From contig JBPOID010000005.1 in the NCBI GenBank assembly GCA_052034805.1, forward strand, positions 50,984 through 114,983: a stretch of 64,000 nucleotides of DNA, in the 5' to 3' direction. A program made the translations under genes and the position numbers. This DNA is from Candidatus Tayloriibacteriota bacterium (GTDB lineage Bacteria > Patescibacteriota > Minisyncoccia > Phycocordibacterales > PALSA-1337). Of the stretch, positions 2,018 to 60,315 are shown one piece after another. Position 1 is the stretch's first letter. Every line of letters starts with the position of its first letter. The notes under the pieces were generated by a model, which had not been told where the DNA came from, searched no databases, and saw only the letters and a program-made list of their open reading frames with translations.

Positions 2018-3382
2018 CTAGATAATAGCCGGAGCTACAGATATTCTTTTTTCTATTATTTTTATAAAAGAATCAGGGAAATATTTCTTTAATTCATTTT
2101 TCCAATCTGATTTACTAATATCTATATCAGGAGAAACTCCTCTTCCTTCTATGGGCTCATTGTCATCACCTAGAGTTATATTATTCACTAGGAATAATGT
2201 ATATTTTTCATTTGTATCTATAACAGTTTCTAATGGATAAGTATTCTCTATAGTTCCCCAACCGGCAGTCCTTGTACCTATTATTTTTGCAATTTTAAGT
2301 CTTTTGAAAATAGCAGAGGTTAATTCGGCTGTAGATTGAGTTCTATTATCAGTAAAAATTACAATATTTTTGAAACGATTCAATGCATCAAATTTAGCTA
2401 GAGTTGTTCTCTGTGGATCATAATTTTCATTTCTATAAAGATCATAAGCATATTGATTGGCTCCGATGAAAAGTCCAGTAATAGAATTAGCGAAAGAGAG
2501 ATCACCACCGATATTCCCTCTCATATCTATAATCAAACTATCGAGATTAGGAGTACTAGAAGCATTCTCTATAGCTATACCGAATTCTTGTAGAGTTATT
2601 GGGGATATTTTAGAAAAATAAAAATAAAAAGTATTATTCATAATATGACCAGAAACTGTTGGTTCTACTTTCGCGGTATCATATAGCTTTTTTGTATTAT
2701 CATCGGTTAATACTTTCTTTGCATATGAGATTTTCTGTAATTCAGTTTTGGCCTCTGTTGTAGTAGCTTTTTCTAGGACTTTTGCTTTTTCTTCATAGAC
2801 TTTTTCTATTTCTTTTTTTGAAGTATCTTTATTTACACCTAAATCTTTATATAAATCTTTAGAAGGATTTATATTACTTACTTCTTGTCTTAGAGCTACT
2901 CTCTGCTTTTCTGAGAAAAGATTACTTCTCATAAACGGCTTTAGACTATTCGTTACCAATCTCACAGTATCTACTATTATTTGTTTTTTCAATTCACTAC
3001 TAGTAGCATTTCTAAGCATGGTGGATAAAATAAATGCTGTATTATCTCTATCTGTGGCTTCTTTATTTTCTTTATTTATAGTTGGTGACTTATCTGTATT
3101 CATAACTTTCATTATAGAAAGTCTGAATAATTCCCCTAATTCTGGTGAACCATATTTTTTATATGAGCCTAATTTCATCCAAAAGTTTTCTCCGATTTTA
3201 TCATAGGCCTCCATAGCAAATCTGGTATATACATCGGATTCATAAACTGTTTTATATTGTTTATTAGGAATATTTATATCCTTTTTATTATAGAAAATAA
3301 TAGGTAAAGAAATAAATGCTAGAAGTATGATAATCGAAAGCTTTTTATTTTTTAATATATTTTTTAAAAGACGCATAAACAT
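2018..3382 (-). CDS. S41-family C-terminal processing peptidase (tail-specific protease-like), membrane anchored
   Basis: N-terminal TM segment; IIDMRGNIGGDLSFANSITGLFIG resembles the S41 D(L/M)RxNxGG motif region. Confidence 0.6.
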   Translation of the reverse strand: MFMRLLKNILKNKKLSIIILLAFISLPIIFYNKKDINIPNKQYKTVYESDVYTRFAMEAYDKIGENFWMKLGSYKKYGSPELGELFRLSIMKVMNTDKSPTINKENKEATDRDNTAFILSTMLRNATSSELKKQIIVDTVRLVTNSLKPFMRSNLFSEKQRVALRQEVSNINPSKDLYKDLGVNKDTSKKEIEKVYEEKAKVLEKATTTEAKTELQKISYAKKVLTDDNTKKLYDTAKVEPTVSGHIMNNTFYFYFSKISPITLQEFGIAIENASSTPNLDSLIIDMRGNIGGDLSFANSITGLFIGANQYAYDLYRNENYDPQRTTLAKFDALNRFKNIVIFTDNRTQSTAELTSAIFKRLKIAKIIGTRTAGWGTIENTYPLETVIDTNEKYTLFLVNNITLGDDNEPIEGRGVSPDIDISKSDWKNELKKYFPDSFIKIIEKRISVAPAII

Positions 3383-3403
3383 ATTTGATATATTTTATCA
3401 TAT

Positions 3404-3448
3404 AAAAAAATTAAACCCCCAAGTCTTGCGGACTTGAGGGTAAAAGTG
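3404..3448 (-). terminator. intrinsic terminator, copy 1 of an identical 45 bp element
   Basis: Minus-strand stem ccctcaagtc/gacttggggg, loop cgcaa, then TTTAATTTTTT. The sequence is identical to 4479..4523. Confidence 0.65.
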
Positions 3449-4291
3449 TTAATTAGTGAAAACTCTAAAGATTCCGGAGTCTCCACTTGAATCTACGGGA
3501 TACATGGTGATATCCCCGTAGATGAAGAATGGCTTTAAAGCCATTTCATTCCATGTTTTGAAATCGTTAGATTTCTCGACATGGATATGTGTGTATTCCC
3601 ATGGGGAATCTACAAAGAGATAGGTACCGTCCGGAATCCCATCAAGATTTTTTATGACCTTGATCTCAAGTGATGTTTTCTTTGCATAGTCCATCACTGC
3701 AAATTCCTCGAATGTATCTATGATAGTACCAACCTCAAAGGAATCAGACCCTTCACCCCAAGTAATAGAGATCGTGGGGTATCTGGTGCTACCATCATAA
3801 GCAATGAAGACATTGAATGTCTCGCTACCGATCTTAAAGCTTCCATAGCTATAAAGATTTTTCATCAACCCTTCAGGGGTCAATGAATAATCATATACGC
3901 TAGTACGATGATCTTCTGTCTTCAGAGCTGGAGAAAATTTTTCCCCAGTCAACACATCGGTAAAGACAGGTGTTGAAACTATCCCATCTAGACCTGTCGG
4001 TATGGGAGATAGTCTGAGGATTCTTCCTCCTGCAAGGGATTTCGTCTTGATAACGAAATAATCGTAATTCCCCTGCTGGGAAGATGCAGAGTTTGACCAA
4101 TCTCCCTCTGTACTAACCCAATGAAGTGGGTAGTTCTGGCTCTGAGCTATCTCCTTATAGTAAAGGATATTGGTTTTGAACGCCTCGCTTACGCGAGGGA
4201 TCCTCACCACCGGCTCAGATGCCTCCGAGAAGATCTGAAACACGAATGATAAGATAACCGACAGAATGACAATGAACTTTGTTGTTTTCAC
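3449..4291 (-). CDS. secreted hypothetical protein (signal peptide), GC-richer than the housekeeping genes
   Basis: Long ORF with an N-terminal signal-like hydrophobic segment and no motif I recognise; its composition differs from the flanking AT-rich genes. Confidence 0.5.
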   Translation of the reverse strand: MKTTKFIVILSVILSFVFQIFSEASEPVVRIPRVSEAFKTNILYYKEIAQSQNYPLHWVSTEGDWSNSASSQQGNYDYFVIKTKSLAGGRILRLSPIPTGLDGIVSTPVFTDVLTGEKFSPALKTEDHRTSVYDYSLTPEGLMKNLYSYGSFKIGSETFNVFIAYDGSTRYPTISITWGEGSDSFEVGTIIDTFEEFAVMDYAKKTSLEIKVIKNLDGIPDGTYLFVDSPWEYTHIHVEKSNDFKTWNEMALKPFFIYGDITMYPVDSSGDSGIFRVFTN

Positions 4292-4478
4292 TTTCTTTCC
4301 TCTTTCTTGTTTTTGTTGTTGTTTACTTATTCACAAAATCTACTCTATATATAGTATCATAATAAATACTATATGTCAATATGACTATGGGCACATTCAA
4401 CCTCTTGGTGCATTTACTTGCTGAACTAGCCATAATACACTAATAACTTTATATCTATTATGTATAAATTTTATTTAT

Positions 4479-4523
4479 AAAAAATTAAACCCCCAAGTCT
4501 TGCGGACTTGAGGGTAAAAGTGG
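4479..4523 (-). terminator. intrinsic terminator, copy 2 of the identical 45 bp element
   Basis: Exact repeat of 3404..3448, lying immediately 3' of the next minus-strand gene. Confidence 0.65.
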
Positions 4524-4540: not shown

Positions 4541-5203
4541 TCAATGATTGAAATACAACCACGACCATGTCGTGACCATCCATGTGAGCTCATTGCCCGT
4601 CTCACTGATGAATAGTCCGATGTTCTTCTTCGTCCAGCCATCTTGTTTGGCTGTGACTGCGATCTCTATAGCTCTCACAATAACTGTGATATGCCCAATG
4701 ACAAGAGACATTCCAGCCAACCCATCGTTTCGCCCTGCTTTGAATATGCAGTAAGCGATATAGAGTTGTGGAGTGCTCTTAACAATAATGGACATTAAGC
4801 CTCTATTGATCGGCTCGACGAAAGTTTCCATCACAGAACCTTTTGATCTTACAATCATAAGGACAGTGAGAGATGCGATAACCAGAAGTGTTACCAATGT
4901 ATCACTTTTCGTCCAGTATCCCTTTAGAGAAATAATGACGAACATAGTGGCCCATAGTAACAACCAGTTGGCATATACAAGAGTGACTTGCATAGCCTTT
5001 CGACTGCCTGAATCCCAATAAGCACTGAGAGCCAGGAAGAAATTAATTGTGACGAAGATCGAACAGAGCATAGACCATGTGATGGTCATGCCAGTCGTCG
5101 TTGTGAATGATCTGTGTATCTGCGGGATGCTGAAGCACCACGCCATAATGATCTGGAACCAGAAAAGCAGGTCCCCGATCATATTTTTGTTTTTATTAGA
5201 CAA
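4541..5203 (-). CDS. PQ-loop-repeat-like polytopic membrane protein
   Basis: About 7 TM segments; two PQ motifs (SIPQIHRSF and STPQLYIAY) in positions consistent with the two PQ-loop repeats; GC-richer composition. Confidence 0.4.
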   Translation of the reverse strand: MSNKNKNMIGDLLFWFQIIMAWCFSIPQIHRSFTTTTGMTITWSMLCSIFVTINFFLALSAYWDSGSRKAMQVTLVYANWLLLWATMFVIISLKGYWTKSDTLVTLLVIASLTVLMIVRSKGSVMETFVEPINRGLMSIIVKSTPQLYIAYCIFKAGRNDGLAGMSLVIGHITVIVRAIEIAVTAKQDGWTKKNIGLFISETGNELTWMVTTWSWLYFNH

Positions 5204-12710: not shown

Positions 12711-13025
12711 TAGAGAAAATCGGTTCACTGATTATAAAATTGGACTTTATGTATAAGAAAATTGGACTTCATGTCATAGAAAATTGGACTTGGCTACTAA
12801 GAAAATCGGTTCGCCGATCTTGCGGTCGGAAGCTCTTTTTCTTTACTCCGTACACTCGCAAAGAAAAAGACTTCCTCCCCGTCGGCTCACACGATTTTCT
12901 AATACGTAATCTAGAAAATTGAGACTTGGCACGGTGCGGGAGCCTTTCCGTAACGGAAGTGGAGGAAAGGTCTCACGCACGCAAGATGCCAAGTCCAATT
13001 TTCTTAGTTTAGTTAATTTTCTTAT
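12711..13025 (+). repeat. copy 1 of a ~290 bp nested-palindromic repeat family
   Basis: Shares a >200 bp near-identical core with 58796..59090 and 60041..60315. Has terminal inverted motifs gaaaattggacttggc / gccaagtccaattttc and extra tandem aaaattggactt units at its left end. Confidence 0.85.
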
Positions 13026-13084: not shown

Positions 13085-13118
13085 AAAGCAAAATAAAAAG
13101 CGGCGCAACATATGTTGC
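13085..13118 (-). terminator. intrinsic terminator on the minus strand
   Basis: Minus strand reads aagcggtgcaacatatgttgcgccgctt (12 bp stem, one G.U pair) followed by TTTTATTTT. Confidence 0.6.
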
Positions 13119-13400
13119 ACCGCTTCGGCCTAAGCCTTATGGTATCACTCGCGCATGCGAGTACGACCGCTACGGTCGCATTTGACCCGATCCTGAAGCT
13201 TCAGATGTTGTCCAGTATTCGCAGGAATGGCAAACCGGTTGAAAAAATCAATCCCCTCTCCAGCCCTACTCTCTTCCTCGTTACCCCTCCTTGCTTGACG
13301 GGCACTGTGTACTGCGATTTGTCCGCCAGTAGTCAGGACGTTCTGATCATTAACTTTACTCAGGTCTTTCGCCATAGTATTGTAGACTCCGATTTTTTAA
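13119..13400 (-). ncRNA. GC-rich (~50%) transcribed element ending at the terminator: candidate structured ncRNA, or a foreign 76 aa ORF
   Basis: Local GC far above the flanks; several local hairpins (ctgaagcttcag, cgaccgtagcggtcg, ctcgcatgcgcgag). It also carries a GGAG-preceded 76 aa ORF (13145..13375). I cannot tell from sequence alone whether it is coding or structural. Confidence 0.3.
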
Positions 13401-13510
13401 CTACCATTTTTACCAGTATATCCACAACAGATATACTACTCCAACAAAGAATAGTACAAGAACGAATAACAAATGTCAAATGAATTATCAACAAAAATAA
13501 TAAATAGAAT

Positions 13511-34367: not shown

Positions 34368-34440
34368 GTTTGTAAATGTAATAATGTAAATATGCGCCCA
34401 TAGCTGTTTTGGTAGTTAAAGACAGGATGAGGTGATATGA
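34368..34440 (+). repeat. first unit of a 73 bp tandem duplication carrying the tRNA-Lys upstream region plus a decayed copy of the tRNA 5' half
   Basis: gtttgtaaatgtaataatgtaaatatgcgcccatagct occurs at 34368 and again at 34441. The first copy continues as gttttggtagttaaagacagg, a degenerate version of the D-arm cagttggtagagcagatccc. Confidence 0.75.
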
Positions 34441-34466
34441 GTTTGTAAATGTAATAATGTAAATAT

Positions 34467-34539
34467 GCGCCCATAGCTCAGTTGGTAGAGCAGATCCCTC
34501 TTAAGGATAAGGTCGTAGGTTCGACCCCTACTGGGCGCA
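34467..34539 (+). tRNA. tRNA-Lys (anticodon CTT)
   Basis: Acceptor gcgccca/tgggcgc, D-arm TAGCTCAGTTGGTAGAGC, anticodon loop CTCTTAA, and T-loop TTCGACC. Confidence 0.85.
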
Positions 34540-37967: not shown

Positions 37968-38333
37968 TTATATTCCTACTGGATTTGGAAGAGTTGCTGT
38001 TTCGTTTATTTTCTGTGTAGGTGTACGATCTTGTGTTGCAAATGAAGTCTTTAATATATTTACAAGTCCCCAAATAGATAATATAAGGAAAAGTCCTAAT
38101 ACTCCGTAGAATACTGCCCAACCTCCCTTCTTTCTATCGTCTTCGCCACCAGCTATAAGATATCTAACAATACTTATAATAATCCATAGAACAGCAAGAG
38201 ATATGGCTAAAGCAATTATAAGATTTCCTATATTTGTACCCTTTTGTGCTACATCATTTATATTATTTAATTGACTCTGAGCAAAGGCCAAAGATGGCAT
38301 AAAAGCTAAAACAAATGCAATGATTTTTTTCAT
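37968..38333 (-). CDS. small secreted TM-loop-TM protein, VirB2/TrbC-pilin-like architecture (paralog 3)
   Basis: Signal peptide ending AFA|QSQ, then TM1, loop AGGEDDRKKGGW, and TM2. Confidence 0.5.
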   Translation of the reverse strand: MKKIIAFVLAFMPSLAFAQSQLNNINDVAQKGTNIGNLIIALAISLAVLWIIISIVRYLIAGGEDDRKKGGWAVFYGVLGLFLILSIWGLVNILKTSFATQDRTPTQKINETATLPNPVGI

Positions 38334-38420
38334 AAAATAAAAAATAATTAATAAACTTTTCTATATTGTATCAATATACTATGTATAATACAAATACTAT
38401 TGTGGATACAAATGACGATA

Positions 38421-38837
38421 TTATGGCGTACTAGCACTAGGTATAACATTACCTGGATTCAAACTACTATTATTCGATGAACTACCATTAAAAGGCCATG
38501 ATGGTCTACTATTAGGCAAATTAAGAGAATTACCCAGTAAAGCTACCAATCCCCAGAAAGATAATATAACGAAAAATCCTATAGTACTGTATAGAACATA
38601 CATACCAGCTTCCTTTTTATCCTTTTCTGTAAAGAAATATCTATATACATTCCAAATAAAAGTAACTATTGCAAAAGATATAATAAGTTTTATACCTATG
38701 GTCAAATATTCAGTAACCAAAACAGCCACGCATTTCAATGTATAAGGTGTACATGAACTAGATGTTTGCGCTTCACTTATAAATGGCAATGCTAATAATA
38801 GTGATAATAATGCTATTTTGATTATATTCTTTTTCAT
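38421..38837 (-). CDS. small secreted TM-loop-TM protein, VirB2/TrbC-pilin-like architecture (paralog 2)
   Basis: Signal peptide ending SEA|QTSS, then TM1, loop TEKDKKEAGMY, TM2, and a Ser/Asn-rich tail. Confidence 0.5.
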   Translation of the reverse strand: MKKNIIKIALLSLLLALPFISEAQTSSSCTPYTLKCVAVLVTEYLTIGIKLIISFAIVTFIWNVYRYFFTEKDKKEAGMYVLYSTIGFFVILSFWGLVALLGNSLNLPNSRPSWPFNGSSSNNSSLNPGNVIPSASTP

Positions 38838-38854
38838 ATTTTTTATATTATAAT

Positions 38855-39301
38855 TTATTTCTTAAGCAAACTCTCATTTACCAAACCACTAGAAGTAAGA
38901 GTATTCTGTACAACAGAGACTATCAATTTTGCACTTATAAGCACTGCAGTACCTATAACTGCATATAGAAACCATGATTTGGCTTCACTCAATGCTTTAT
39001 CATTACCTTGAGCCATAACGAATTTGAAACCAATCCATATAAACATAAGTACAGCCACTATCATACCGATAAACATAGCCATATCTACTACAGAGAATAA
39101 TAATTCAGTCACACTATTGGCTTTAAGAGGATTACTAAGTGTTGGAAAAACAGAATTATTTATAGGTGAAGTATTATTCAATGATTGTTTAGAACTTGTA
39201 TCATTCAAAGGTTGTTGACTTCCAGATTGAGCAAATACAGGAACAGAACTTATTATGAATAATGTAATTATGATTAATGAGGAAATTAGAAATTTTTTCA
39301 T
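38855..39301 (-). CDS. small secreted TM-loop-TM protein, VirB2/TrbC-pilin-like architecture (paralog 1)
   Basis: Signal peptide ending VFA|QSGS, then TM1, loop AQGNDKALSEAKSW, and TM2. Confidence 0.5.
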   Translation of the reverse strand: MKKFLISSLIIITLFIISSVPVFAQSGSQQPLNDTSSKQSLNNTSPINNSVFPTLSNPLKANSVTELLFSVVDMAMFIGMIVAVLMFIWIGFKFVMAQGNDKALSEAKSWFLYAVIGTAVLISAKLIVSVVQNTLTSSGLVNESLLKK

Positions 39302-57606: not shown

Positions 57607-58791
57607 ATGCCAAACATAACACCAGATATAGAAGCATTCGCTAGAATAAAAGTTATCGGAGTTGGAGGTTCAGGAAAGAACGCTGTGAATCATATGATCA
57701 ATTCCAAAGTAAAAGGTGTTGATTTTATCGCGGTAAACACTGATGCTCAAGACTTGCATCATTCATTAGCAAAAAAGCGTATTCATATAGGGAAAAATCT
57801 AACAAGAGGTCTGGGTACAGGCATGAATCCAGAAATGGGTAAAAGAGCAGTAGAAGAAAGCAAAGAAGAAGTACAAGAAGCTATAAAGGGTGCGGATATG
57901 GTATTTGTGGCTGGAGGATTGGGCGGAGGCACATGTAGTGGAGCAAGTCCTGTTATAGCGAGAACAGCCAAGGAACTCGGTGCTCTTACAGTAGCTGTTG
58001 TAACTAGACCATTTTTCTTCGAAGGACAACAAAGATCAAAAATAGCAGAATCAGCATTAGAAGATTTAAGAAAAGAAGTTGACGCTATTATAGTTATACC
58101 TAATGATAGACTTCTATCTACAATAGACAAAAACACTACAGTAAAGAATGCTTTCGCAATATGTGATGAAATATTACGCCAAGCAGTAGAAGGCATATCT
58201 GATCTTATAACAACTCCTGGAATCATAAATATAGACTTTGCAGATATAAGAACTGTTATGGAAAATGCTGGTTCAGCTCTCATGGGTATAGGTTCAGCAT
58301 CAGGAGAAAATCGTGCAATAGAGGCAGCAAAGCTCGCTATAAACTCCCCATTATTAGATATATCTATACATGGAGCAAAAGGAGTTCTATTCTCAATAGC
58401 TGGTGGTGAAGATCTAACAATGTTCGAAATACAAGACGCAGCGAAAGTTATTACAGAATCCATAGATCCTCAAGCAAAAGTTATATTCGGTACAGTTAGA
58501 GATGATAAGCTAAAGAAAAATGAAGTAAAAGTAACCGTTATAGCTGCGGGTTTCCTAGGTAATACAAAAGAAGGCGTTACAAAAGAATCACCAAATACAA
58601 AGATAGAAAATATATCAATACAAGCAGATATTACAGCAAAAGAAGAAAAGAAAGGTAAAATCTTTAATAACATATCAACACCAATAAAAGAGAAAGTATT
58701 GGTTGAAGAAAAGAAAGAAATCAAAAATAGTGATGATGACGATGATTGGGGTGCGGTACCGGCTTTCTTGAGGAGATCAAAATTGAAATAA
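57607..58791 (+). CDS. ftsZ: cell division GTPase FtsZ
   Basis: GVGGSGKNAVNHM, tubulin signature GGGTCSGASPVIA, and an acidic C-terminal tail. Confidence 0.95.
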   Translation: MPNITPDIEAFARIKVIGVGGSGKNAVNHMINSKVKGVDFIAVNTDAQDLHHSLAKKRIHIGKNLTRGLGTGMNPEMGKRAVEESKEEVQEAIKGADMVFVAGGLGGGTCSGASPVIARTAKELGALTVAVVTRPFFFEGQQRSKIAESALEDLRKEVDAIIVIPNDRLLSTIDKNTTVKNAFAICDEILRQAVEGISDLITTPGIINIDFADIRTVMENAGSALMGIGSASGENRAIEAAKLAINSPLLDISIHGAKGVLFSIAGGEDLTMFEIQDAAKVITESIDPQAKVIFGTVRDDKLKKNEVKVTVIAAGFLGNTKEGVTKESPNTKIENISIQADITAKEEKKGKIFNNISTPIKEKVLVEEKKEIKNSDDDDDWGAVPAFLRRSKLK

Positions 58792-58795
58792 TCTT

Positions 58796-59090
58796 TAGAA
58801 AATTGGACTTGGCATACAAGAAAATCGGTTCGCCGATCTTGCGGTCGGAAGCTCTTTTTCTTTACTCCGTACACTCGTAAAGAAAAAGACTTCCTCCCCG
58901 TCGGCTCACACGATTTTCTAGTTTACAATATTACATACTAGAAAATTGAGACTTGGCACGGTGCGCAGAACTTTCTTTTTAGTCGCTTGTCGATAAAAAG
59001 AAAGTTTACTGCGCACGCAAGTAGCCAAGTCCAATTTTCTCGTATACGAACCGATTTTCTTAGATACGGACCAATTTTCTACAGACTATG
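58796..59090 (+). repeat. copy 2 of the ~290 bp nested-palindromic repeat family (variant central hairpin)
   Basis: Shares left and right arms with copies 1 and 3. The centre is cagaactttctttttagtcgcttgtcgataaaaagaaagtttactg, itself a palindrome. Confidence 0.85.
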
Positions 59091-59106
59091 CTAAAATACT
59101 ATCATT

Positions 59107-60030
59107 ATGATATATGATCTTATAATAATAGGTGGCGGACCAGCAGGAGTTGGAGCAGGTGTATACGCCGCTAGAAAGGAATTAAAAACTTTATTTATAA
59201 CAAAGGATTGGAATAGCCAAAGTACAGTTTCAACTGGAATAGAAAATTGGATAGGAACCATAAAGATATCCGGAGAAGATTTCGCAAAAAGCCTAGAAAA
59301 TCATCTAAGAGCTTATGCAAAAGAATTCGTAGATATACATACAGGTGAAAGCTGTGAAAATATAGAAAGAAACGATAATTTATTTAATATAAAAACATCC
59401 AAAGGCAATTATTCAGCAAAAACAGTACTAATAACCATAGGAAGCTTCCGTAAGAAATTAGAAATAAAAGGAGCAGATGTATTCGAACATAAAGGACTTA
59501 CATATTGCGCATCATGTGATGGACCATTATTCAGAGATCAAGATGTAATAGTAGTAGGTGGCGGTAATGCAGCATTCGAAAGTGCATCTCAACTATTAGC
59601 ATATTGCAAAAGCGTGACTCTGATAAATCGTAGTGACAAATTCCGTGCAGATCCCATAACCATAGATACCGTTTCGAAAAATTCTCATTTCAAAATAATT
59701 ACAAATGCAATACCGAAAGAAGTTAAGGGTGACAAATTCGTAAAGTCTTTTGTATATACAGATTCAAGTAATGGTAAGGATGTAGAAATACCAGCTACAG
59801 GCATTTTCGTAGAAATAGGTTCATTACCTACAACATATTTCGCAAAAGATTTGGTAAAACTAGATCAATGGAATCATATAGTAGTGGATCCTAGGGATCA
59901 GAGAACATCTGTAGAAGGTATATGGTCTGCTGGAGATTGTACTGATGGTCTTTATCATCAGAATAATATAGCTACAGGAGATGGTGTAAAAGCTCTAGAG
60001 GATATATATCTTTTCTTAAAAACAAAGTAA
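59107..60030 (+). CDS. trxB: thioredoxin-disulfide reductase-like flavoprotein
   Basis: FAD motif IIGGGPAGVGAG, redox CASCDG, and NAD(P)H motif VVGGGNAAFE. Confidence 0.8.
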   Translation: MIYDLIIIGGGPAGVGAGVYAARKELKTLFITKDWNSQSTVSTGIENWIGTIKISGEDFAKSLENHLRAYAKEFVDIHTGESCENIERNDNLFNIKTSKGNYSAKTVLITIGSFRKKLEIKGADVFEHKGLTYCASCDGPLFRDQDVIVVGGGNAAFESASQLLAYCKSVTLINRSDKFRADPITIDTVSKNSHFKIITNAIPKEVKGDKFVKSFVYTDSSNGKDVEIPATGIFVEIGSLPTTYFAKDLVKLDQWNHIVVDPRDQRTSVEGIWSAGDCTDGLYHQNNIATGDGVKALEDIYLFLKTK

Positions 60031-60040
60031 TTTGTTAGAA

Positions 60041-60315
60041 AATTGGTTCGCCTATTAGAAAATTGGACTTGGTATACAAGAAAATCGGCTCGCCGATCTT
60101 GCGGTCGGAAGCTCTTTTTCTTTACTCCGTACACTCGTAAAGAAAAAGACTTCCTCCCCGTCGGCTCACACAATTTTCTAGTTTGTAATATTCCATACTA
60201 GAAAATTGAGACTTAGCACGGTGCGGGAGCCTTTCCGTAACGGAAGTGGAGGAAAGGTCTCACGCACGCAAGATGCCAAGTTCAATTTTCTAATAGGCGA
60301 ACCGATTTTCTATTT
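60041..60315 (+). repeat. copy 3 of the ~290 bp nested-palindromic repeat family
   Basis: Near-identical to copy 1, including the central ggagcctttccgtaacggaagtggaggaaaggtctc hairpin. It is in the same orientation as copy 2, on the other side of trxB. Confidence 0.85.

Follow-up and report, generated by a model that had tools for sequence, protein, structure and literature searches.

The stretch analysed here (the window) comprises 64,000 nucleotides of contig JBPOID010000005.1 from a Candidatus Tayloriibacteriota bacterium of the Patescibacteria (assembly GCA_052034805.1, positions 50,984 to 114,983). Within it, in the gene order ftsA-ftsZ-trxB-SNase, the trxB gene is bracketed by two copies of a palindromic repeat, and a third copy lies elsewhere in the window. 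The copies occupy 58796-59080, 60036-60312 and 12711-13022, essentially where a preliminary description of this DNA had placed them, and are 90-95% identical in pairwise comparison. Measured between their outer inverted ends they are 230-247 bp long, with 94-97.5% identity outside one swapped hairpin. A three-way alignment gave a near-invariant block of ~230 bp common to all three, and a direct-repeat search of the window recovered a 171-nt family at 12776, 58795 and 60055, together with flanking sub-families. Two independent same-strain assemblies (Logan L001 and ENA L002) are identical in sequence to the window at the repeats. Three of their four contig ends fall within the repeats, as expected of short-read contigs that meet multi-copy DNA, and no repeat unit is present at the far end of L002.

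The window contains the motif AGAAAATYGR 20 times, where 1.9 would be expected; none of 100 shuffles reached 20, and 18 of these occurrences are inside the three copies. There it is spaced by 20-22 bp, forward at the left side and reversed at the right, which bears out the nested inverted motifs noticed earlier. All three copies folded far better than shuffled sequence, with z values of -13.1, -14.8 and -7.6. The repeats contain only spurious open reading frames (ORFs), and the near-identical peptides already reported from them were found in every copy, here as KKKSFRPQDRR[AT]DFL.

The ~290-bp repeat is not a single structure but combines two hairpin units of ~100 nt, which belong to one family and stand in opposite orientation (Table 1). 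On the minus strand, the second half of the repeat can be aligned with the first half over its full length. A covariance model built from the units matches the window three times on the plus strand and three times on the minus strand, at 86-125 bits, and the signature GAAAATYGR-N9-CTTGCG-N35-65-CCGT-N11-ATTTTC matches the window at six places and 100 shuffles at none. A single large structured RNA of ~290 nt, one of the possibilities raised earlier, is not supported, given that the two strands each carry a unit of this family, nor did the repeat match Rfam: with release 15 only tRNAs reached the gathering score, and the best matches of the region at E<=10 were chance matches to plant microRNA precursor models.

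Each unit is made of three helices, whose stem sequences vary between units yet remain complementary. The unit ends, (T)AGAAAATYGG and CRATTTTCT(A), pair together and give every unit inverted ends of 8-11 bp. An asymmetric internal loop is invariant, with CTTGCG on the 5' arm and CCGT on the 3' arm. The apical loop varies, being conserved within the subtype called m1 as CTSCGTAYACTCG, or as TTGCGTATACTCA in the two units of L048, a metagenomic locus described below. In the composite, one to four end fragments pointing right are followed by a right-pointing unit, a spacer of 16-27 nt, a left-pointing unit and one or two left-pointing end fragments; all these fragments correspond to the first 14-19 nt of a unit and point inward. 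The composite is closed by a 17-bp terminal inverted repeat, which is perfect in copies 1 and 3; that of copy 2 has a single mismatch and extends to 36 bp. The two units of a composite each fold on themselves and not on each other, and the composite itself is copied as a block. Copies 2 and 3 (starting at 60041 and 12711 in the preliminary description) share the same central hairpin, gagcctttcc...ggaaaggtctc, and it is the copy at 58796-59090 that differs. The swap reported earlier is thus real; the wrong copy had been singled out as the odd one, and what replaces the shared sequence is a strong hairpin, not a perfect palindrome.

Table 1. Parts of the three composite repeats and the enclosed trxB gene (window coordinates)
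Feature	Position	Strand	Remarks
Copy 1, solo end-motif fragment TAGAAAATTGGACTTGGCA	58796..58814	+	serves as left arm in the outer inverted repeat (17 bp); corresponds to the minus-strand unit's 5' end, inverted
Copy 1, unit m1	58817..58922 (core 58820-58918)	+	~100-nt hairpin, 125 bits; apical loop CTCCGTACACTCG; internal loop ATCTTGCG / CCGT
Copy 1, unit m2	58936..59044 (core 58941-59039)	-	86 bits; swapped apical hairpin cagaactttctttttagtcgcttgtcgataaaaagaaagtttactg
Copy 1, two inward end-motif fragments cgaaccgattttct, ggaccaattttct	59047..59080	-	20 bp apart
trxB, thioredoxin reductase family, 307 aa	59107..60030	+	resident gene outside the element
Copy 2, two solo end-motif fragments TAGAAAATTGGTTCGCC, TAGAAAATTGGACTTGG	60036..60072	+	20 bp apart; with 60277-60312 forms the 36-bp inverted repeat
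Copy 2, unit m1	60077..60182 (core 60080-60178)	+	119 bits
Copy 2, unit m2	60196..60295 (core 60201-60290)	-	89 bits
Copy 2, inward end-motif fragment ggcgaaccgattttcta	60296..60312	-	
Copy 3, four direct end-motif fragments	12714..12794 (starts 12714, 12735, 12756, 12778)	+	21-22 bp spacing; upstream of the first unit
Copy 3, unit m1	12798..12903 (core 12801-12899)	+	122 bits
Copy 3, unit m2	12909..13008 (core 12914-13003)	-	95 bits; followed by a degenerate end fragment to about 13022

The known set amounts to 13 units from five sources. When these were aligned, 95.3% of the cells formed standard pairs. Both sides had changed in 21 of the 35 pairs (76 cells), and one-sided changes of the G-U type affected at most two cells. 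No shuffle reached these covariation values, and slid controls were 44-53% paired with 5-8 pairs changed on both sides. The two strands of the unit fold about equally well. The earlier statement that the fold is kept while the sequence is swapped is thus strongly supported. The selection on RNA read from it is insecure, because the changes are nearly all from one Watson-Crick pair to another and both strands fold equally well, and also because recombination that swaps a contiguous arm-loop-arm segment between units preserves pairing automatically. The near absence of G-U changes and the equal folding of both strands are more in keeping with constrained DNA complementarity, or with both strands being constrained, than with a constraint on a single RNA strand. 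The swapped hairpin of copy 1 and a mosaic unit in the closest relative, L003, look like such segment replacement. Template switching from arm to arm can also correct palindromes, which is a second caveat on the covariation. Neither caveat accounts for the invariant asymmetric loop or for the conserved ends across genomes of 33-51% GC, and both of these look like recognition features.

The history of the locus could be read from relatives. Homologues of TrxB assign the organism to Patescibacteria/Paceibacterota. All nine relatives that were examined have retained the order ftsA-ftsZ-trxB-SNase. In eight of them, with TrxB 80-82% identical to that of the window, ftsZ and trxB are 4-22 bp apart, compared with about 315 bp in the window, SNase is convergent, and the ends of trxB and SNase overlap by 0-21 bp or leave a 13-bp gap; both the unit and the motif are absent from the ftsZ-trxB-SNase locus of these eight. 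L003 (GCA_964507375.1), with TrxB 89% identical, has a single unit downstream of trxB. Its ftsZ-trxB spacer, 73 bp of unrelated sequence, contained no unit according to the covariance model even with filters off, and a decayed unit suspected there was unsupported. L048, whose TrxB is 81% identical, carries one solo unit in its ftsZ-trxB spacer, and an inverted pair (<- ->) follows immediately downstream of trxB. Across the window, L003, L048 and the eight other relatives, the two spacers are thus filled, half-filled or empty. As the genes are tightly packed without units in eight relatives, trxB is not a cassette, and the presence or absence of units at its flanks indicates that the units are insertions around a resident gene. 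We conclude that the repeats were inserted around an old, fixed trxB rather than bounding a movable cassette, and the recombination cassette boundary considered in the preliminary description can be discarded. As a separate observation, the last codons of ftsZ, TCAAAATTGAAATAA (58779-58791), resemble the end motif and stand 20 bp ahead of its first true occurrence, by chance or as a hint of target preference; ftsZ has the same ending in L003, which lacks a unit at the ftsZ-trxB site.

The family signature found true members at other sites in JGI metagenomes. In Ga0208375, the metagenome that also provided the trxB units of L048, one unit lies in the rplJ-rplL spacer (L047) and another just upstream of a tRNA-Lys gene (L049). 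The inverted pair of L048 was found by the covariance model; at 3965-4188 of that contig its two units face apart (<- ->), one of them with the variant ends CAAAATCG...CGATTTTG, while the arrangement in the window is -> <-. In L046 (Ga0265314, 51% GC) a unit lies inside topA, antisense to the gene, in frame and without a stop codon. The L046 protein reads ...KIIANI[ELENRASGRGEENFSDSTHAREGKVSAPASSASRFSEVS]SSIPDFEANGSR where the TopA of the window reads ...KIIANISLKDNIPDFYANGSR, a net gain of 36 amino acids. Most other aligned TopA proteins are without any insert, including one 81% identical in the region; P0121 starts past the site. Units can be tolerated in frame inside topA, an essential gene. 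A TopA fragment from JGI, P0123, has an unrelated insertion of ~38 amino acids, SPPNLGGVAVGRGGIGNANTTSPSQGSGTPPLKGGE, at exactly the loop occupied by the L046 unit, and this TopA loop may be a recurrent permissive insertion site. The proximity of dprA to both copy 3 and the L046 unit is explained by the latter lying in topA, the neighbour of dprA. Units are more alike within one genome than between genomes at a shared site.

Other searches delimited the family. The exact core GCGGTCGGAAG-N25-50-CTTCCTCCCCGTC had no match in GTDB species representatives or JGI metagenomes. A looser three-block pattern gave two chance matches among GTDB representatives (Desulfosarcina and a Selenomonadales metagenome-assembled genome), which were coding-like and without a hairpin, and no match in viral contigs (IMG/VR). 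A motif-pair pattern retrieved 31 loci from viral contigs, the clustered ones being unrelated tandem arrays of the 10-bp sequence GAGAAAATCG in gut phages. These arrays, at L026 10180-10300 and similar IMG/VR loci (L018, L019, L021, L036, L037), are iteron-like and match the pattern by chance. No match to plasmid and phage collections was obtained by blastn. A chimeric 422-aa query found none of the unit-encoded peptides in other proteins at E<=1, and a profile of the +2-frame peptide, run against 1.84 billion representatives, returned only the spurious ORF of the window itself, both searches being insensitive for 35-aa matches.

According to these results, we think, with a probability of about 0.7, that the repeats constitute a family of selfish DNA not described before, short, dispersed, palindromic and non-coding, in Patescibacteria (Paceibacteria-like, 33% GC), similar to MITEs (transposable elements of the miniature inverted-repeat kind) and behaving like the Rickettsia palindromic elements (RPEs). 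Gain and loss at the same site, occurrence at unrelated sites, nesting, dimerisation, the likeness of units from one genome and the intragenic copy together are the behaviour of non-autonomous selfish DNA. The MITE-like mobile unit, already among the options listed earlier, is favoured in particular by presence and absence at the same site in relatives, by the members at unrelated loci and by the in-frame topA unit. As in MITEs, the copies are small (<~500 bp, the composites measuring 230-290 bp), non-coding and dispersed, have terminal inverted repeats and are polymorphic for insertion between relatives; a target-site duplication of fixed length, as MITEs have, was not found.

Several results speak against this interpretation. 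Pfam revealed no transposase, integrase, HUH or reverse-transcriptase domain among the ~60 ORFs of the window, 18 of which have no Pfam match, so that an unrecognised enzyme could still be among them. No target-site duplication is consistent across units. TA stands at most ends and is absent in L046 and L049, which rules out a TA duplication of the IS630/Tc1 kind. Neither a 5-bp nor any other duplication occurs at the outer ends of the three composites, and Tn7-like TGT...ACA termini with 5-bp duplications were considered and dismissed, the termini being not symmetric and the duplications not present. Each site offers one clean comparison of a filled with an empty state, and no strain-level polymorphism was seen. 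Solo units mostly have the orientation of the flanking genes (4/5) and start 5-8 nt past stop codons, which fits a role in RNA too. Finally, GTDB species representatives, IMG/VR and the collections of phages and plasmids contain no member of the family at the stringency used, and the 13 known units come from only five sources.

We hypothesize that the units spread as selfish DNA by means of a trans-acting enzyme, which would recognise the conserved ends or the internal loop and whose substrate is probably a folded single strand. Strict Watson-Crick pairing and the lack of target duplication point to a single-strand hairpin substrate, as in IS200/IS605 and REP/RAYT. The inward arrays of end fragments resemble multi-site transposon ends or could be the product of repeated abortive insertions. 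There may also be side effects on the host. The units likely separate the transcription of ftsZ from that of trxB, and trxB, split from ftsZ, retains its own promoter-like region. Lying just past stop codons, with a layout of A-tract, hairpin and U-tract, they may function as terminators of the hairpin type or as sites of processing, and the direct repeats could delete trxB by recombination.

This kind of element is well known (MITEs, RPEs, REP/BIME and BOX-like repeats), and the family itself is new; among the papers searched, we found no description of palindromic or MITE-type repeats in Patescibacteria or the Candidate Phyla Radiation. Insertion in frame in protein genes is the hallmark of RPEs (Ogata et al. 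2000; summarised in PMC10969869). By that account, RPEs and the present units are alike in being dispersed palindromic repeats of ~100-150 bp in the small genome of a host-dependent bacterium, in lying both between genes and in frame within conserved protein genes (here one case, topA with its 36 additional residues), and in having ORFs that run through the element and no known transposase. They differ in that one of the 13 known units is intragenic here, against nearly half of the RPEs in the same account, and in that the Patescibacteria units form inverted dimers with arrays of end fragments and occur in a different phylum. The units would thus work like RPEs without being members of that family: the likeness is one of behaviour, and no sequence relationship is expected.

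The bacterial MITEs (Correia/NEMIS, ERIC, RUP, BOX, SPRITE) are likewise small and non-coding, have terminal inverted repeats and give transcripts that fold strongly. They are intergenic, often at gene ends, with possible side effects as terminators or RNase sites, and their copies are modular or clustered and insert into each other, BOX, RUP and SPRITE clusters being examples. In contrast to them, target-site duplication is not consistent among the present units, a parental insertion sequence sharing their ends was not found, and the whole 100 nt, not the ends alone, stays complementary through changes in both arms. REP, BIME and REPIN sequences, which RAYT (Y1/HUH) transposases mobilise, have in common with the units covarying stems, inverted pairs copied as a block, the lack of target duplication and a single-strand hairpin as likely substrate. 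However, REPs are 20-40 nt long with a conserved GTAG head, whereas our unit has ~100 nt and AGAAAATYGG ends, no RAYT gene was detected by Pfam in the window, and the units of a composite fold on themselves. A TIGR array consists of alternating 8-12-nt repeats with 9-nt variable spacers, in 5-15 units, beside a tas gene with a Nop domain (PMC12045711). The anatomy of the repeats rules this out: the neighbours are ftsZ, trxB, SNase and dprA, variable spacers are lacking and the copies are dispersed.

The units could instead be functional cis-acting signals of RNA or transcription that are repeated and kept for their function in neighbouring transcripts, such as bidirectional intrinsic terminators, RNase III/E sites or mRNA stabilisers. 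A mobile origin would be consistent with this, SPRITE, ERIC and Correia elements being parallels, and MITEs acting as terminators or RNase sites are documented (PMC10969869). It would explain why an A-tract, a GC-rich hairpin and a U-tract (AGAAAAT...ATTTTCT) are read on both strands, why units lie just behind the stop codons of ftsZ, trxB and rplJ or between convergent genes, why four of the five solo units share the orientation of the upstream gene, and why the apical loop within m1 and the internal loop are conserved while the stems vary. However, copy 3 is enclosed by two canonical terminators that belong to its neighbours, a place at which another is not needed, and one unit lies within the topA reading frame. 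Pairing is kept nearly without G-U intermediates in units that fold equally on both strands, one unit of the composite is always antisense, and the order of orientations is reversed behind the trxB of L048. A scan for consensus terminators yielded just a small inner hairpin of m1, CCGATC-TTGC-GGTCGG, which is not conserved in other units. We consider this explanation rather unlikely.

The motif arrays raise a further alternative, in which AGAAAATYGG repeated every 20-22 bp would be the binding site of a host protein (iteron-like, nucleoid or regulator) and the hairpin units would be incidental. The motif is enriched about tenfold and confined to the elements, its spacing corresponds to about two helical turns, copy 3 has up to five direct copies, and the fragments always point inward, as at Tn7/Mu-type ends. 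Multi-site ends are a feature of Tn7/Mu-type transposons. On the other side, solo units in other genomes have the two terminal motifs only, without arrays, every motif is a unit end, whole or truncated, a candidate for the binding protein was not found, and the look-alike arrays of gut phages are plain 10-bp tandem repeats without relation to the units. Accordingly, we judge host binding sites improbable. The least credible alternative, to which we give hardly any weight, is that trxB and its flanking repeats form a mobile or recombination cassette, similar to an integron cassette, a Xer module or a composite transposon. A single gene between two direct, imperfect palindromes that conserve structure above sequence is superficially reminiscent of integron attC sites. 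However, the bracketed gene is ancestral and syntenic, its order with ftsA, ftsZ and SNase being found in every relative examined whether units are present or not. The number and orientation of units at the two flanks differ in other genomes, units also occur singly and at many other kinds of site, and the third copy flanks no cassette. Moreover, no integrase or recombinase was found by Pfam in the window, and no R''/R' cores were seen by eye.

Returning to mobile selfish DNA, it is tempting to propose more specifically that the unit is the substrate of an unrecognised Patescibacteria mobilisation system that reads the folded single strand, with the CTTGCG/CCGT loop and the AGAAAATYGG ends as protein recognition sites, or else that domestication has turned units into bidirectional terminators or processing sites, which are mobile and re-wire operons, ftsAZ-trxB for example. 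This proposal is speculative, and we regard it as unlikely as it stands. If true, a system reading single strands would explain the strict Watson-Crick complementarity of all three helices across genomes of 33-51% GC.

Further features of the window were noted in passing. A GC-rich island at 13095-13445 (minus strand; 50-58% GC against 33% genome-wide) adjoins copy 3. It ends in a strong intrinsic terminator (13126-13097, minus strand), has a fold z of -3.5, no Rfam match and a 76-aa ORF (13145-13375, minus strand), and probably represents either a non-coding RNA that lacks annotation or a small gene that was acquired. At 3382-3448 and 4456-4522 stand two copies, 84% identical, of a 67-nt repeat; it contains the hairpin CCCCCAAGTC-TTGC-GGACTTGAGGG, a terminator-like sequence placed behind two adjacent minus-strand genes without Pfam match (3449-4291 and 4541-5203). 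A 48-nt tandem duplication (34368-34415 and 34441-34488, 94% identical) comprises the upstream region and the first 22 nt of tRNA-Lys(ctt), and leaves a truncated pseudo-tRNA start 73 bp ahead of the real gene. At 37968-39301, on the minus strand, three consecutive small genes match PF18895 (T4SS_pilin), the last one also TrbC/VirB2.

In summary, the covariance model and the sequence signature provide a means to census the family. Its repeats fragment the short-read assemblies of the organisms that carry them, and the 230-bp direct repeats around trxB could mediate deletion of this gene. The family breaks up conserved operons, as between ftsZ and trxB, and an essential enzyme, TopA, can gain 36 residues from a unit, as happens in Rickettsia. 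Thus, selfish palindromic DNA persists in the small, streamlined genomes of Patescibacteria.

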